Assembly: GCA_038231135.1 (NCBI GenBank)
Contig: JBBRLX010000001.1
Span: 1 to 64,000, forward strand
Reading direction: 5' to 3'
DNA from: Candidatus Eiseniibacteriota bacterium
GTDB lineage: Bacteria; Eisenbacteria; RBG-16-71-46
DNA length: 64,000 bases
The notes under the pieces are model-generated. The model saw only the letters and a list, made by a program, of their open reading frames with translations. It was not told where the DNA came from and did no database searches. The position numbers and the translations under genes were made by a program. This document shows positions 11,632-18,274 of the stretch, piece after piece (within the stretch, counting starts at the first letter, position 1; the number at the start of each line of letters is the position of its first letter).

Positions 11632-12234
11632 TTACATCGGAATCGTAGCGTCCGGCTCCGCGCGCCCCAGGCCGCGCGCCGCGAGCTTCACCAGCTCACG
11701 GGCGCCGGGCAGCTCGCCGCGGCCACCGGCGCGGATCCGGCCCTCGGCGTCGATGACGAACCACGAGATCGAGTTGCGTTGCGTCACGGGGTCGATGCTC
11801 GAATAGAGGCCGCCGATTACGCACTGGGGATCGGCGATCACGCCGCACTTGAGGTGCAGGCGCCGCGTGAGCCGGGCGACCGAGCCGACCCGCATGTCGA
11901 ACGCGGCCACCGGCCACACCCCGATTCCCGCGAGCGCGGGTAGCGCGCGGTCGAGGTCGGCGAGCTGCGCATCGCGCGCTCCGAACACCAGCAACACCGG
12001 GCCCTGGGCCATCAGCTGCCGGAACTCGTGCCACGCGCCGTCGGCGCCGAGATAGGAGAACGCCGGCGCGGGGTCGCCGATCACGACGCGGCCGTTGGGC
12101 TCGCCATCACTGCGCCAGCCATTGCCGGGCTCGGTGTCGCGCTCGACGACGGCGGACGAGGTGAGGCCCTCGGCCGCCAGGACTCGTGTGGCGGGCAGCA
12201 ACAACAGCCCGGCGATCAATACTCGGCGCAGCAT
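11632..12234 (-). CDS. Exported AhpC/TSA (redoxin)-fold protein lacking the canonical active-site Cys
   Basis: Signal peptide; IGDPAPAFS..GPVLLVF..VIADP..FVIDAEGRIR pattern; no CxxC or TxxC after the first strand. Confidence 0.65.
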   Translation of the reverse strand: MLRRVLIAGLLLLPATRVLAAEGLTSSAVVERDTEPGNGWRSDGEPNGRVVIGDPAPAFSYLGADGAWHEFRQLMAQGPVLLVFGARDAQLADLDRALPALAGIGVWPVAAFDMRVGSVARLTRRLHLKCGVIADPQCVIGGLYSSIDPVTQRNSISWFVIDAEGRIRAGGRGELPGARELVKLAARGLGRAEPDATIPM

Positions 12235-12490
12235 GACGGAACGCTCCTCGCGAAAGGGACCGGAATGGGATGAACGATGCGGATGGGTGCACTGCGAGGA
12301 CTGCAATCTCAGGGCCACCCGCAACTCATGACGGTTGCTCGGATGCGGCGGCAGAGGACCTGCAGAAACCCACGTGCGCTGTGCGAATTGCCGCAGGCGC
12401 CGGGGGGTGTTCCCCCGATTGCGCGAATCCACCCGGCGCCAAACGACGTTACGTGTTACGTAACTCCGCGCCGGGGTGCCGCCTCGGCCT

Positions 12491-12505
12491 TGGAACTCAT
12501 CTTGC
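12491..12505 (+). promoter_or_regulatory. Sigma54-like (-24/-12) promoter upstream of the RiPP operon
   Basis: TGGAACTCATCTTGC is one mismatch from TGGCAC-N5-TTGC, 110 bp upstream of the RRE start. Confidence 0.55.
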
Positions 12506-12615
12506 GTTATCCCGACGTGACGCAGTGCGAGCAGGCGTTATTCCGTGCCCGCCGCCGCATGCACGTATGTGCTCGCTCCCATTTCATCCAGACCCGGCGA
12601 GGAGGCTCGACAACC

Positions 12616-12897
12616 ATGACCGACACCACCCTCGTGCATGCCCGCACCCGCCACCTCTGGCAGGAGCTGGGCGACGAAGGCGTCATCCTCGACCTCGACG
12701 CAGGCACGTATTTCGGCCTCAACGCCGTGGGCCGCCTGGTGTGGAAGCAAATCCAGTCGCCGTGCACGCTCGCGATGCTCCGGCAGAGCGTGATGGCCGA
12801 GTTCGACGTCGACGCCAAACGCTGCGACCTGGACCTGAGGGCGTTGCTCCAGGCGTTCGCCGCCCGCGGCATGATCGATATGGACGCGGCCGCATGA
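12616..12897 (+). CDS. PqqD-family RiPP recognition element (lasso B1-type)
   Basis: 93 aa after GGAGG; QELGDEGVILDLDAGTYFGLNAVGRLVW..EFDVDAKRCDLDL..GMI. Confidence 0.93.
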   Translation: MTDTTLVHARTRHLWQELGDEGVILDLDAGTYFGLNAVGRLVWKQIQSPCTLAMLRQSVMAEFDVDAKRCDLDLRALLQAFAARGMIDMDAAA

Positions 12898-13337
12898 TGA
12901 ATCCCCGCGCCTGGGCTGTCCTCGAGATCGCGCTCGTATCCGCGCTGCTGCTCCCGTCCGTGCGTGTCGCCGCGGCCCGCGAGCCGTTGCCGAGGACACG
13001 GGCCCGCCTGCGGCGCCTGCTGCGGTCTCGGCGCCGCCCCGCGCGCATCGATGCGGCCGGAGTCGGGCGTGTCGTCTCCGCGATCGGACGTCGGATGCCG
13101 GGAATCGGAACGTGCCTCACGCATGCGCTCCTCGCCGAGGCGCTGTTGCGCCGCGAGGGACATGCGGCGCGGCTCGTGATCGGCGTCGAGCGTCCGGAGC
13201 ACCGACGGCTTGCTGCACATGCTTGGATCGAGAGCCAGGGCGCGGTCGTCGTCGGATCCGCCCGGGATCTCGATCGTTTCACACCCCTCGCGATGGGAAG
13301 GGATTCCCCCAACCCTCGGTCCGCAGGGACCGGATGA
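12894..13337 (+). CDS. Lasso peptide B2-type leader peptidase (transglutaminase-like)
   Basis: TCLTHAL (Cys), LVIGV, AHAWIE (His); ATGA overlap with the RRE gene. Confidence 0.92.
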   Translation: MMNPRAWAVLEIALVSALLLPSVRVAAAREPLPRTRARLRRLLRSRRRPARIDAAGVGRVVSAIGRRMPGIGTCLTHALLAEALLRREGHAARLVIGVERPEHRRLAAHAWIESQGAVVVGSARDLDRFTPLAMGRDSPNPRSAGTG

Positions 13338-13354
13338 ACCCGAAAGGAGCACAT

Positions 13355-13474
13355 ATGCACGAGAACGAAACCCGCAAACCGTACGTTACCCCGGAACTCG
13401 TCGAGTTCGGCTCGGTGGCCGATCTCACCGAGCGGCTCGGCAGCGGCTTCTGCGACGGCAACTGCAAGCAGTGA
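13355..13474 (+). CDS. Lasso-type RiPP precursor, 39 aa (MHENETRKPYVTPELVEFGSVADLTE-RLGSGFCDGNCKQ)
   Basis: AAAGGAG RBS; leader motif YxxPxLxxxGxxxxxT; sits between B2 and the kinase. Confidence 0.92.
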   Translation: MHENETRKPYVTPELVEFGSVADLTERLGSGFCDGNCKQ

Positions 13475-13488
13475 CCCTCGAACCTCGG

Positions 13489-13518
13489 CGGCGCGCCGGA
13501 GAGACAACCGGCGCGCCG
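13489..13518 (+). promoter_or_regulatory. Stem-loop directly after the precursor gene
   Basis: CGGCGCGCCGG-AGAGACAA-CCGGCGCGCCG perfect 11-bp stem without a long U tail. Confidence 0.6.
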
Positions 13519-13536
13519 TTCGCGTTCGGCGGCCTT

Positions 13537-14508
13537 ATGACTTCGAAGCTCTACCACGTGTTCGGCACCGTGCTCGAGAGCGACATCGAGTTGCCCGAGC
13601 TGCCCGCGGCTCTCCGGCACGAAGTGCCCGATTGGTCGTGTCATGCGCGCGCCGCGGCTTCGAGCGACACGCCGAGCCCGTCGAGCCGCATCCAATGGCT
13701 GCATCGCTCGCACGGTGAAGACGGCCGCGTGTGGATCGCCGTCGGCCGCCGCGGCTCCGGGTACGTGATTCGCGTACCGCGTATCGCGGAGTTCGCGATC
13801 GCCGCCGACGGATCCAGGATTCAGTGGCAATGCGTGCGCGGACTCCCGCCGCACACGCTGCGCCACCTGCTGCTCGACCATGTGCTGCCGCGCGTGCTCG
13901 ACCTGCGCGGTGCGCTGGTGCTGCACGCCGGTGCCGTCGCCACCTCGGCCGGCGCAGTTCTGCTGCTCGGCGGCAGTGGCCGCGGCAAGTCGACGCTCAC
14001 CACCAGCCTCGCCCAGCGCGGGTTCGAGATCCTCGGCGACGACGTGATCGTGCTGCGCATGATCGACGGCTGCTGGCACGCGGTGCCGAGCTACCCCGGG
14101 TTGCGGCTGTGGTCGGATTCCGCGGACCGGCTGCTCGCGGACGGCGGGTGCGTGGGACAGGTCGCGCACTACACGGACAAAACGCGTGGTGATGCGCGCA
14201 GCATGGGGGCGCGGTTCGCGACCGGCCCGGTGTCGCTCGCCCGTGCCTATGTGCTCGAACCCGCGGCGGCCGATGCGATCCCGGCGGTGGGCGCGATGTC
14301 GCCCGGCGCCACGTTCGGCGAAGTCGCGGCGCACACGTTTCGCTTCGATCCCGGCGCGCGCGAGGCGCTGCGCGACGAACTCGCGACCCTCGGCCATCTC
14401 GCCATGCAGCCGTGGTTCCGCACGCTGAGCGTGCCACGGTCGTACGATGCGCTCGACCTGGTGCACGACACCATCGTGCGGGACCTCGAACGTGGAGTTG
14501 CGGCGTGA
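13537..14508 (+). CDS. HPr kinase-like RiPP tailoring kinase (PadeK-like)
   Basis: YHVFGTVLESDIELPEL start, LVLHAGAV, Walker A GGSGRGKST, ILGDD, YPGLRLW. Confidence 0.88.
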   Translation: MTSKLYHVFGTVLESDIELPELPAALRHEVPDWSCHARAAASSDTPSPSSRIQWLHRSHGEDGRVWIAVGRRGSGYVIRVPRIAEFAIAADGSRIQWQCVRGLPPHTLRHLLLDHVLPRVLDLRGALVLHAGAVATSAGAVLLLGGSGRGKSTLTTSLAQRGFEILGDDVIVLRMIDGCWHAVPSYPGLRLWSDSADRLLADGGCVGQVAHYTDKTRGDARSMGARFATGPVSLARAYVLEPAAADAIPAVGAMSPGATFGEVAAHTFRFDPGAREALRDELATLGHLAMQPWFRTLSVPRSYDALDLVHDTIVRDLERGVAA

Positions 14509-15704
14509 ACCTCGAGCTCGTGCAACGACGCAGTGCCCCCGGCAAGGGCAGCCTCGCTCTCGAGCTGCGGGTGCTGCTCGACGTGGCGCGCACCCGGCTG
14601 TCGCGCGAACGCCGGCATCACGTCCAGTCCACGATTGCGGGCGGACTCGATGCCGATCGCCTGCTGGCGCTGGCAGCCGGGCACGGCCTGGTACCGCTGC
14701 TGCACCATCATCTTGGCGCGACCGGCGAGCTGCCGGAGCCGGCGCACGAACGGCTGCGCGTCGCCGCGCGCGAGAGCGCGATGCTGAACATGGCGCTGTA
14801 CGCTGAGCTCCACCGCCTGCTCGACGCGCTGGACGCCGCCGCGATTCCCGTCGTGCCCTACAAGGGCCCGGCGCTCGCGGTGTCGCTCTATGGCAACATC
14901 GCGCTGCGCGAGTTCCGCGATCTAGATCTTTTAGTAAGGCCCGAGGATGTGCTGCGCGTGAAGCCGCTGCTGCTCGATCGGGGCTACCGGCCCGAATACT
15001 CGCTGTCTGAGGCCGCCGAGCGCATTCACCTACGAGAATCTTGCGATTATCAGTTCGGCCGCAGCCGCGGGCGTGGCGTCGTCGAGGTGCACTGGGCGTT
15101 GCTGCCGCGCTACCTGTCGCGGCCCATGGAGAGCGGCTGCTGGCAGCGCCTGGTGCCGCGCATGCTCGGCAACCGCCAGGTGCGCGGACTCGCGAGCGAA
15201 GACTTGTTGTTGTACCTGTGCGGCCACGGCACCAAGCACGGCTGGGAGCGACTGACGTGGCTCGTCGACGTGGCTGAATGCGTGCGCGCCGACGCCGGCC
15301 TCGACTGGGACCGGCTGCGCATGCGCGCCGAGCTGCTCAAGGCCAGTCGCGTGCTTCGGCTTAGCCTCGCGATGGCGCGCGATCACCTGTCGCTGGAGCT
15401 GCCCGACGAGATCTCGTCATGGATCGACGAGGACGGCGAGCTGCCGCGCGTGATGCGTTCGATCGCGAACGGCTGGCACGATCCCCGGCCGCGCCGGGCG
15501 ATCACCACGACGCTGATGCATCTGGCCACCCGGGATACTCCGGAGGAACGGTTCCGCTATCTCGTGAAACGCGCCACGAACCTCAACGAGCACGACTGGT
15601 CCTTTGTCGCTTTGCCGGAATCGCTCGTCGGGTTGTACTACCCCTTACGCGTCGTGCGACTGGCGGGGGAGGGGTTGGCGAAGATGGGGAAGACGGGAAC
15701 CTGA
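14505..15704 (+). CDS. Nucleotidyltransferase family protein (NTP_transf_5-like)
   Basis: GTGA overlap with the kinase; VPYKGPALA..YG..REFRDLDLLV, VEVHW, HGTKHGWERLTWLVDV. Confidence 0.88.
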   Translation: MNLELVQRRSAPGKGSLALELRVLLDVARTRLSRERRHHVQSTIAGGLDADRLLALAAGHGLVPLLHHHLGATGELPEPAHERLRVAARESAMLNMALYAELHRLLDALDAAAIPVVPYKGPALAVSLYGNIALREFRDLDLLVRPEDVLRVKPLLLDRGYRPEYSLSEAAERIHLRESCDYQFGRSRGRGVVEVHWALLPRYLSRPMESGCWQRLVPRMLGNRQVRGLASEDLLLYLCGHGTKHGWERLTWLVDVAECVRADAGLDWDRLRMRAELLKASRVLRLSLAMARDHLSLELPDEISSWIDEDGELPRVMRSIANGWHDPRPRRAITTTLMHLATRDTPEERFRYLVKRATNLNEHDWSFVALPESLVGLYYPLRVVRLAGEGLAKMGKTGT

Positions 15705-15996
15705 AAGCCGAAGGCCAGCCACGTCCCCGGTCTGATCTGTTACCAGTGTGCCCGGTCCGTACCGACGAATTACCTTGACGTGCTTTCGAGCTGACCTTCC
15801 GGTACCTCGCCGCATGTCGTTTCGATCCACGCCTGTGCGCCCACAACGCGAGTTTGCGATCCCGTTCGCTCATCGACGCGGATGCCTCTCATAACTCAGC
15901 GCTTAACGCGATCTCACGCGATCTGCGAGCCTGAAATCAGGCCGCGCTACAATGATCGCGTCAACGCCCCCGCTCATTCCATTCCGCGAGCGTCCC

Positions 15997-16690
15997 ATGA
16001 ACAGCAACGCGTTTCGCCACATCGCCGACCGGACCCTGCTTCAGAATCTCGACGCGACAGTTCGAGTTGATTGCGGCACCACGGCCAGGATGCTGGGCGA
16101 GATCGGCGAGGTCGATAGGCTCCGGCTGTACCTGGGTGAAGGCCACCCGTCGATGTACGCGTACTGCGTGAACGTGCTGAACATGTCGCCCGACATCGCG
16201 TACAAGCGCATCCGCGTCGCTCGCGCGCCCGGCGGTTCCCGGCGCTTTACAAGCTGGTTGCTGAAGGCCGGTTGCATCTCAGTGCCATCGTGATGCTGGC
16301 GCCGTATCTGACGCGAGACAACGCCGACGACTTGGTGGCGGTGGCCACACGCAAGACCAAGATCGAGATCGAACTGCTGATCGCCGAGCGCTTCCCGCGG
16401 TTGGATCTGGCGACGCAGATCAAGCCGATCTCCCCGTGGACCCCGCAACTGGCCCCGGGGCCAGTTGAAGCGACCCCGCCGAGGCCAAAGCTCACGCCGC
16501 TGTCGCCGGAAAGATTTGGGTTGCAGGTCACGATCGACCGGAGCACATACGACACGCTATTGCTTGCGAAAGCGTTGCTCAGTCACGCGATGCCATCTGG
16601 CAACGTCGTGGAAGTGCTCGACCGGGCGCTGGACGTGCTCACCAGCAGCTCGAGCTGCGCATGTTCGCGGCGACGGACAAGCCCCGCGCC
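15997..16690 (+). pseudogene. Frameshifted, truncated DUF222-like / HNH-associated gene
   Basis: Three frames join into one protein: ...SMYAYCVNVLNMSPDIAYKRIRVARA / RRFPALYKLVAEGRLHLSAIVMLAPYLT...VLDRALDVL / QLELRMFAATDKPR; shifts near 16228 and 16642; no HNH domain follows. Confidence 0.7.
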
Positions 16691-16723
16691 TGTGGATTGC
16701 TCACGGCTTCCGCGTTCCGCAGA

Positions 16724-18274
16724 TCATAACGGCATGTTCCCGTGCTTCTTCCACGGCAGCGTCTGGCGCTTGTTGCGCAGCATCTCGAGCGCGGCGATCA
16801 GCCGGGGCCGCGTGTCGCGGGGGTCGATGACGTCGTCGAGGTAGCCCAGCTCGGCGGCGGCCCACGGGCTCGCGAACTTGTCGTTGTACTCGGCGATTAG
16901 CCGCTTGCGCTCGGCCGCCGGGTCCTTGGCCTTCGCGATCTCTTCGCGATAGAGAATATTTACGGCGCCGTCGGCGCCCATCACGGCCATCTCGGCGCTC
17001 GGCCACGCCACGTTGAAATCGCCGCGGATGTGCTTGCTCGACATGACGTCGTACGCGCCGCCGTAGGCCTTGCGCACGACGACCGTCAGCTTGGGCACGG
17101 TGGCCTCACAGTAGGCGTACAGCAGCTTGGCGCCGTGGCGGATGATGCCGCCCCATTCCTGGCGGGTGCCGGGCAGGAACCCGGGCACGTCCTCGAACGT
17201 CACGAGGGGCACATTGTACGCGTCACAGGTGCGTACGAACCGGGCGCCCTTGACCGACGAGTCGATGTCGAGCACCCCGGCGAGCACATTGGGCTGGTTC
17301 CCGACGATCCCCACGGGCCGTCCGTTGAGCCGCGCGAAGCCCACGATTAGATTGCCGGCGAAGTGCTCGTGGACCTCGAAGAACTCGCCGTCATCCACGA
17401 TGCGCCGCACGACGTCTGTCATATCATAGGGCTTGTCCGAGGACTCGGGCACCACTGTGGCCAGCTCCTGGTCGCGGCGGTCGACGGGATCGGTGCAGGC
17501 GCGGCGCGGGGGCTCTTCCATGTTATTGGCAGGCAGGAACGAGAGCAGGCGTTTCACAGTGCGCAAGGCATCGGCGTCGTCCTGTGCGGCGAAATGCGCG
17601 ACGCCGCTCTTCGAGTTGTGCGTCATCGCGCCGCCGAGATCCTCGAACGAGACTTCTTCGGACGTCACGGCGCGGATCACCTCGGGGCCGGTGACGAACA
17701 TGTGGCTCGTGCCCTCGACCATGATCGTGAAGTCGGTGATCGCGGGGGAGTACACGGCGCCGCCCGCGCACGGGCCCATCACGGCTGAGATCTGTGGCAC
17801 CACGCCCGATGCCAGCGTGTTGCGCAGGAAGATATCGGCGTAGGCGCCGAGCGATACCACGCCCTCCTGAATACGCGCGCCGCCGGAGTCGTTCAGTCCG
17901 ACGACCGGCGCGCCATTGTCCATCGCGAGATCCATGATATTGCAGATCTTGCGGGCGTTGGCCTCGCTCATCGTGCCGCCGAACACGGTGAAGTCCTGGG
18001 CGAAGCAGTAGACCTGCCGGCCGTCGATCGTGCCCCAGCCGGCGACCACGCCATCCCCGGTGATCTTCTTCTTCTCCATCCCAAAGTCGGTCGAGCGGTG
18101 GGTGACGAACGTGCCCAACTCGACGAACGATCCGGCGTCGAGCAGCAACTCCAGACGCTCGCGGGCGGTGAGAATGCCCTTGGCGTGGAGTTTGGCGACG
18201 CGCTCGGGCCCGCCGCCGGCCAGGGATTCCTCGCGGCGCCGCTGGAGTTCGGCCAGACGCTGCTCTTTGTTCAA
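16724..18274 (-). CDS. pccB: Acyl-CoA carboxylase carboxyltransferase subunit (propionyl-CoA carboxylase beta type)
   Basis: [56 protein letters not shown] start. Confidence 0.92.

Follow-up and report, generated by a model that had tools for sequence, protein, structure and literature searches.

Of the systems described so far, the one closest to that considered here makes linear polyphosphorylated peptides (LPPs; genes lppA-K-B-S-D-N) and is found in Bacillota (Popov et al., Nat Commun 2026; PMC13381572). Their clusters are reported to comprise a RiPP recognition element (RRE; RiPP, ribosomally made and post-translationally modified peptide), an HprK-like kinase, a PF14907 nucleotidyltransferase (NTase), a SipW-like signal peptidase (LppS) and an MsbA-like exporter (LppD), with no cyclase (PMC13381572). 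In a heterologous host the LPP kinase phosphorylated core Ser3 up to four times and a linear core of 45 aa was freed by the peptidase, and the same report states that LPPs are restricted to Bacillota (PMC13381572). Kinases of lasso-peptide clusters are described as sharing a His-Lys-Asp-Asp motif, and those characterised act on a C-terminal Ser (PMC9266682). The reaction of the accompanying NTase is left open in the accounts of both PsmN (PMC9266682) and LppN (PMC13381572), and roughly half of the discrete lasso-type RREs are reported to have no co-occurring peptidase and cyclase (RRE-Finder, PMC7470986). Here we describe a five-gene operon in Candidatus Eiseniibacteriota bacterium (assembly GCA_038231135.1, labelled G000 here) that occupies positions 12616–15704 of a 64,000-nucleotide stretch, hereafter the window (contig JBBRLX010000001.1, positions 1–64,000, forward strand), and that combines lasso and phospho-lasso genes in the absence of a ring-forming enzyme.

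The five genes are co-directional and run in the order RRE, B2 protease, precursor, HprK-like kinase and PF14907 NTase; all are assigned to families, and the operon has no sixth gene. A preliminary description of the window had recognised these tightly linked genes, placed them between a divergent gene and a pseudogene, remarked that neither a cyclase nor an ATP-binding cassette (ABC) exporter appears in the window, and offered either a cyclase-independent RiPP class or a cluster served in trans as the explanation. Family models bear out the gene assignments, and both overlaps can be read from the sequence (ATGA at 12894–12897, joining the RRE stop and the B2 start, and GTGA at 14505–14508, joining the kinase stop and the NTase start); for the precursor, the ATGA-overlapping start at 13334 gives way to a likelier one at 13355. 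The two flanking features were recovered as described, and searches of the window (1–64000) returned no PF00733 match. We hold, at somewhat better than even confidence, that the operon is an intact and conserved cyclase-free derivative of a phosphorylated-lasso pathway, with a linear or disulfide-looped phosphopeptide as its best-supported product. Because the genes are those of lasso and phospho-lasso pathways with the ring-forming enzyme missing, the product is likely a short, unknotted and phosphate-decorated peptide. Part of this explanation is that the operon arose from a kinase-bearing lasso-peptide cluster through loss of the cyclase.

The absence of the cyclase is a recurrent property of the closest relatives. 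These were sought by scanning metagenome contigs with a 35-sequence kinase alignment (544 relatives, the best 80 retained) and by scanning the phylum, where the kinase has a match in 14 of 206 genomes (one of them G000) and from which nine loci were fetched besides that of the congener G057. A cyclase-less operon was found in four further loci (G057, L038, L039 and L040), with kinases 49–63% identical to that of G000. In G057 the same five genes stand in the same order (identities of 60% for the RRE, 58% for B2, 85% for the precursor, 57% for the kinase and 58% for the NTase) on a separate contig with flanks unlike those of the window, while the site syntenic to the window holds an unrelated 890-aa repeat protein between an AhpC-like gene and pccB. 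The operon therefore moves as a five-gene unit. The 25-kb contig L038 shares synteny with the window, with housekeeping flanks 76–88% identical and a five-gene operon 55–62% identical that lies directly between the AhpC-like gene and pccB; no cyclase was found within the >8 kb searched on each side. The 3.8-kb L039 has the same gene order without a cyclase and is intact up to the contig end, and on the 1.5-kb contig L040 the precursor and kinase alone are visible.

A cyclase was seen only in relatives with a kinase no more than 41% identical. Among the remaining 77 of the best 80 metagenome loci (kinase 32–41% identical), a cyclase lies beside the kinase in 43, the other 34 being undeterminable on contigs of no more than 4.7 kb or with the kinase 1.6 kb or less from a contig end. 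Six of the nine fetched phylum loci have a cyclase, two are short contigs and one is a P-loop match alone. The preliminary description had proposed a survey of such neighbourhoods and had held that an adjacent cyclase in close relatives would speak for a deletion relic; no such neighbour was encountered, and the absence of the cyclase recurs in G057, L038 and L039. In 20 of the 80 related metagenome loci a second PqqD-type RRE lies directly 3' of the kinase, in addition to the B1 next to B2 (L061, L070, L073, L079, L081, L082, L084-L088, L090, L093, L099, L103-L105, L110, L112 and L117). The cyclase-less clade has a single RRE copy, of the B1 type.

A lasso cyclase was not found beside the operon in G000, G057 or L038, nor genome-wide in G000 (a draft metagenome-assembled genome, MAG, of 4.09 Mb in 97 contigs, 93.45% complete) or G057 (a draft MAG, ∼97% complete in ∼230 contigs). 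The PF00733 search that the preliminary description had suggested gave five matches over G000, none of lasso type: three full-length Asn-synthase homologues and two short PP-loop matches. The three homologues begin with MCGIAG and pass TIGR01536 at 378–478 bits (cut-off 267), and they fail the lasso-cyclase models NF033535 (198–328 bits against 525) and NF033561 (63–93 against 300). With a hidden Markov model (HMM) built from 29 cyclases that neighbour kinase relatives (24 from metagenomes and 5 from the phylum) and run over the six-frame open reading frames (ORFs) of G000, the only hits are the same homologues, at 400, 292 and 279 bits, and two weak ORFs, at 25–29 bits; on this model the 24 metagenome cyclases themselves score 770–964 bits and the five phylum cyclases 329–668. 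At the position of the AsnB nucleophile Cys2 the alignment places Ser in 24 of 24 distinct metagenome cyclases and Cys in none of the five phylum cyclases. G057 has only two PF00733 homologues, both beginning with MCGIAG and so retaining Cys2.

The AsnB-like gene at C1:118942-121128 (L003; L118:8897-11125) was considered as a trans cyclase and rejected, since its product fails the lasso-cyclase models, keeps Cys2, has a strong GATase_7 match and is encoded in a polysaccharide cluster, with GT2, GT4, methyltransferase and flippase genes as neighbours. Its 400 bits on the lasso-cyclase HMM and 328 on NF033535 are nevertheless above one genuine phylum cyclase, and it may prove useful as an outgroup when the origin of lasso cyclases is traced. 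Genome G007, from the same bacterial family, has a canonical lasso cluster with a kinase (RRE, B2, kinase, cyclase and precursor; L014:473-652), and the cyclase of that cluster is very divergent, with a PF00733 score of merely 35 bits; weak PF00733 matches therefore deserve a check of model coverage before they are dismissed.

In a kinase tree of 87 rows (48 with a cyclase and 35 undeterminable), the five cyclase-less loci form one clade with a Shimodaira–Hasegawa-like approximate likelihood ratio (SH-aLRT) support of 100; its stem measures 0.84 changes per site, and the lineages around it carry cyclases. The NTase tree (23 rows) returns the same clade with a support of 100 and a stem of 0.89. 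Both trees are unrooted, so it is the presence of the cyclase everywhere else that gives the change its direction, a loss. Selection on the operon genes is purifying: in comparisons with G057, L038 and L039, the ratio of nonsynonymous to synonymous divergence (dN/dS) of all five is 0.23–0.41 at a dS of 0.6–1.25; for the flanking housekeeping genes against L038 it is 0.10–0.21. The four enzyme genes have a dN of 0.31–0.34 as opposed to 0.07–0.17 for flanking genes, and thus evolve 2–5 times faster, and the precursor is the best conserved gene of the operon (76–85% identity). Recurrence in four loci, purifying selection and a single nested clade together point to one loss of the cyclase with retention of the rest of the cluster, which is the simplest reading of these sequence comparisons.

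The individual proteins retain the features expected of their families. The first gene (12616..12897, + strand) encodes a 93-aa B1-type RRE of the PqqD family (PF05402, 55.5 bits, cut-off 23.4) that scores 49.1 bits on the lasso PqqD chaperone model NF033536, under its cut-off of 80, and is 52–60% identical to its counterparts in G057, L038 and L039. The second (12894..13337, + strand) encodes a 147-aa lasso B2 leader peptidase, a transglutaminase-like Cys protease (86.2 bits on PF13471 and 84.9 on NF033537, the latter with a cut-off of 33), whose catalytic Cys (in TCL) and His (in AHAW) are retained in 4/4 clade members; it is the sole PF13471 match in the G000 genome. The 323-aa HprK-like peptide kinase (13537..14508, + strand) matches PF07475 (22.8 bits) and TIGR04352 (42 bits) over its P-loop region, both under the cut-off, and a profile search against HPr kinases in the PDB gave an E of 5.8e-7. 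Residues H130, K151, D168 and D169 are invariant among 35 relatives and match the His-Lys-Asp-Asp motif that lasso kinases are reported to share (PMC9266682), and the AlphaFold2 (AF2) model (predicted local distance difference test, pLDDT, 94.8) has a PEPCK/HprK fold.

The fifth gene (14505..15704, + strand, GTG start) encodes a 399-aa protein that covers nearly the whole PF14907 model (207.5 bits, model positions 3–248 of 249), the family to which LppN and PbaN also belong according to the supplement of PMC13381572. K120, G121, D139, D141 and H196 are invariant in 23 relatives. A search of PDB sequences with this NTase found nothing, and the best fold matches of its AF2 model (pLDDT 88.4) are LnuA, MenT1, ANT(2'')-Ia and FKRP, at a modest likeness (template-modelling score 0.6–0.7 on the target). 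Given that LnuA and ANT(2'')-Ia are O-nucleotidylyltransferases, MenT-type enzymes NTases and FKRP a phospho-alditol transferase, the structure models would fit transfer to a hydroxyl or phosphate group, a range that does not fix the reaction.

The 39-aa precursor (13355..13474, + strand) matches the lasso leader model NF033521 at 24.2 bits (cut-off 19). Its most likely start is the ATG at 13355, which has AAAGGAG 6 nt upstream, and this layout of Shine-Dalgarno sequence and ATG is conserved in G057 and L038; the ATG at 13334 is less likely. The leader is MHENETRKPYVTPELVEFGSVADLTE and the predicted core RLGSGFCDGNCKQ, with cleavage following Thr-x placed by analogy with lasso B2 systems. Among the five aligned precursors, Y10, P13, T25 and R27-G31 are invariant, so that every core begins with RLGSG (R1-L2-G3-S4-G5). 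No hydroxyl residue besides Ser4 is common to all five cores, and three of them have no other at all. RLGSG is followed by F or A, one variable residue and then, in 4/5, D8; the L038 core has E7 and N8, and E7 is present in two of the five (L038 and L039). The first eight residues are the most conserved portion of a core that ranges from 12 to 34 aa across the clade (13 residues in G000). Beyond them stand the tails GNCKQ, NETGCD and RPRD and two His/Gly-rich tails of ∼25 residues ending in HC, so the C-termini read KQ, CD, HC, HC and RD, none with a C-terminal Ser. Ten distinct precursors of cyclase-bearing relatives have G, S, T, H or N at position 1, variable ring residues and D8 in 10/10, and just three of the ten end in Ser. 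Set against the usual lasso core, with a small first residue and Asp or Glu at 7–9, the clade keeps the acidic residue (D8 in 4/5, E7 in 2/5) and has Arg at position 1 in 5/5. The precursors at L038:9691-9867 and L039:1683-1862 are those with long His/Gly-rich tails ending in His-Cys, and in G000 and G057 the cores are short and contain two Cys along with acidic residues; such compositions are suggestive of metal binding.

Between the precursor and kinase genes lies a GC-rich hairpin with a 12-bp stem (13488..13519, + strand; fold −38.2 kcal/mol, z −2.75), and an equivalent GGCGCGCCGG-type hairpin occupies the same position in all four loci with a visible spacer (G000, G057, L038 and L039). 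It is likely an attenuator or an mRNA-stabilising element, judging from its position and predicted fold.

A maturation route can be proposed in which the RRE would bind the YxxPxL leader, presenting it to kinase and B2 alike. Ser4 would be phosphorylated, or polyphosphorylated, by the kinase within the invariant start of the core, RLGSG, by analogy with the action of LppK on core Ser3 in LPPs, and B2 would cut after Thr-Glu to release RLGSGFCDGNCKQ, whose two Cys may form a disulfide. The phosphate would in turn receive a sugar or nucleotide-derived group from the NTase, a reaction proposed for PsmN, and export would proceed via an unlinked system.

Several points weigh against this reading. 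We infer every chemical step of the maturation, and the C-terminal Ser of known lasso-kinase substrates is absent here, such that the assignment of Ser4 draws on the LPP analogy and on conservation. The NTase step is further weakened by the reported inactivity of LppN in a heterologous host (PMC13381572). The module is without an exporter or immunity gene (50 PF00005 matches were found genome-wide and none in the window, leaving the operon with no exporter), both genomes are incomplete draft MAGs, and there are just five loci, two of them (L039 and L040) on short contigs and all probably from one narrow lineage. The main observation left unexplained, however, is the acidic residue kept at core position 8 (D, 4/5) or 7 (E). 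Because this is the position that closes the 8-residue ring in 10/10 cyclase-bearing relatives, ring closure by some route is possible. In one alternative, a cyclase encoded elsewhere, unassembled or AsnB-like, closes an R1-D8 macrolactam to yield an ordinary branched-cyclic or lasso peptide, and this split cluster would account for D8 or E7 in 5/5 cores; the draft state of the genomes would leave room for it, and on the lasso-cyclase HMM the AsnB-like C1:118942-121128 scores 400 bits as compared with 329 for a true cyclase, cycG007. We nonetheless consider it unlikely. The gene would need to have been missed by chance in both genomes, and the AsnB-like proteins of G000 (three) and G057 (two) keep the GATase domain and also Cys2, where 24/24 cyclases have Ser. 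The best candidate lies in a polysaccharide cluster, and its probable orthologues, judged by PF00733 score and ORF length alone, occur in family genomes without the operon. The cores argue in the same direction, with N8 in L038, an Arg1 unlike the ten ring-forming relatives, and tails of 4–6 residues (G000, G057 and L040) that are too short for lasso threading as judged by known lasso peptides. With two near-complete genomes holding Cys2-bearing Asn-synthase homologues only, the in-trans option of the preliminary description is disfavoured, and its cyclase-independent option draws support from the same gene order without a cyclase in G057, L038 and L039.

The ring might instead be closed by an enzyme other than an Asn-synthase homologue, if the kinase (via an acyl-phosphate) or the NTase (via an acyl-adenylate) activates Asp8 or Glu7 for attack by the amine that B2 has freed. 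An RLGSGFxD octapeptide closed in this way as an R1-D8 macrolactam would, if true, be a cyclase-independent route to lasso-like rings. The conserved acidic residue at 7 or 8 and the conservation of the first eight core residues are in its favour, and the long stem branches of both enzymes are compatible with a changed function; we nevertheless give it the smallest chance of the explanations considered. We know of no precedent for ring closure driven by a kinase or an NTase. Both families coexist with the cyclase in 48 related loci, which implies that their ancestral role was tailoring, the residues invariant in the kinase are the ones found in HprK-like kinases that phosphorylate Ser, and L038 has Asn at position 8. 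It is improbable as well that the operon is what decay has left of a lasso cluster and makes no functional product, even though its proteins evolve 2–5 times faster than those of flanking genes, no exporter is present and a pseudogene adjoins it. The five ORFs are intact in G000, G057 and L038, and those of L039 up to the contig end; dN/dS is at most 0.41 at a dS of ∼1, the catalytic residues are kept, the precursor is the best conserved gene (76–85%), the hairpin is conserved, and in G057 the module has been relocated as a unit.

The operon is sited on a 268-kb contig of G000 with housekeeping genes on either side. Upstream, the divergent gene (11632-12432, minus strand) has a weak AhpC/TSA-like match (21.8 bits, cut-off 26) and is 49% identical among G000, L038 and G057, with a dN/dS of 0.54, as compared with 74–89% for its neighbours. 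It was considered as a sixth operon member and rejected, because in G057 it stays at the syntenic site (L128:3130-4023) with the operon elsewhere, which places it outside the module. The slot between this gene and pccB is variable, window positions 12433-16723 corresponding to L128:3860-6532 of G057, where the 890-aa, repeat-rich protein is apparently secreted. Downstream, the pseudogene (15952-16844, + strand) is a frameshifted and truncated copy of the first ∼240 residues of a 464-aa paralogue, spread over two frames. Pfam and NCBIfam searches gave it no family and it was assigned through its paralogues, of which a full-length copy has a weak RuvA_C match and otherwise no Pfam or NCBIfam family. 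This pseudogene family has 12 matches in G000, and two copies, 85–86% identical, are located at contig ends (C1:267407-267691 and C20:73129-73413), as would fit a repeat element that may be mobile. In L038, the NTase gene and pccB have no stretch of this kind between them.

If the preferred reading of a cyclase-free phosphopeptide pathway is true, lasso pathways have lost the cyclase on at least two occasions and come to make linear peptides that bear phosphate, one being the Bacillota LPPs and the other the operon here, the Bacillota route having recruited a signal peptidase and the Eisenbacteria route having kept the original B1/B2 peptidase. B1/B2 would then be a stand-alone leader peptidase in vivo, and the LPP idea would reach past Bacillota into an uncultured phylum. 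The operon would also be a small, tractable test case, with a 13-residue core and one candidate phosphosite, that could reveal the function of PF14907 NTases. No paper describing a B2-type, cyclase-less kinase/NTase cluster was found in the literature search, and the notion that phosphorylated lasso peptides have a linear analogue has a published precedent in the LPPs (PMC13381572).

Among known systems, the operon can be compared with uncharacterised lasso clusters that include a kinase, from soil metagenomes and from other Eisenbacteria (L042-L117, L014 and L032-L036). These have homologous RREs and B2 proteases, kinases 32–41% identical (77 metagenome loci), NTases 26–32% identical, and the same leader, Y..P.L.E(Y/F)G....LT, and acidic core position 8, but a cyclase of Ser2 type is present in them (48 loci), a second RRE is frequent, and their rings are variable and start with G, S, T, H or N where the operon cores have RLGSG. 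With paeninodin/pseudomycoidin-type clusters it shares the split B1/B2, the His-Lys-Asp-Asp HprK-like kinase, a PsmN-type NTase and the leader Thr at −2; as described, those clusters have a cyclase and a conserved C-terminal Ser target, and the operon has neither (PMC9266682). The YxxPxL...Thr(−2) leader, the B1-type RRE and B2 are thus all those of a lasso cluster, and it is the absence of the C protein that sets the operon apart from one. In its mode of action it most likely works like an LPP system, by analogy: both have a discrete RRE, a kinase that is HprK-like, a PF14907 NTase, no cyclase and a Ser near the core start, and in both the product is expected to be linear. The leader shares the YxxPxL part of the reported LPP motif (YxxPxVLxHQxIxFETxxS) without HQxIxFET, and the Ser is at core position 4 instead of Ser3; cores are 12–34 aa as against 45 aa in LppA of P. 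alginolyticus, LPP precursors overall being reported at 35–200 aa (PMC13381572). The host is Ca. Eisenbacteria as opposed to Bacillota, the peptidase is a lasso B2 Cys protease (PF13471) as opposed to the SipW-like LppS, and no MsbA-like LppD is present, so the operon falls outside the LPP family as it has been defined. The kinase clade lies inside cyclase-bearing soil clusters, in a tree built without LPP sequences, which fits an independent origin. Given that LPPs use a signal-peptidase-like protease and an exporter, the operon is best compared to them as a B2-dependent variant of separate ancestry.

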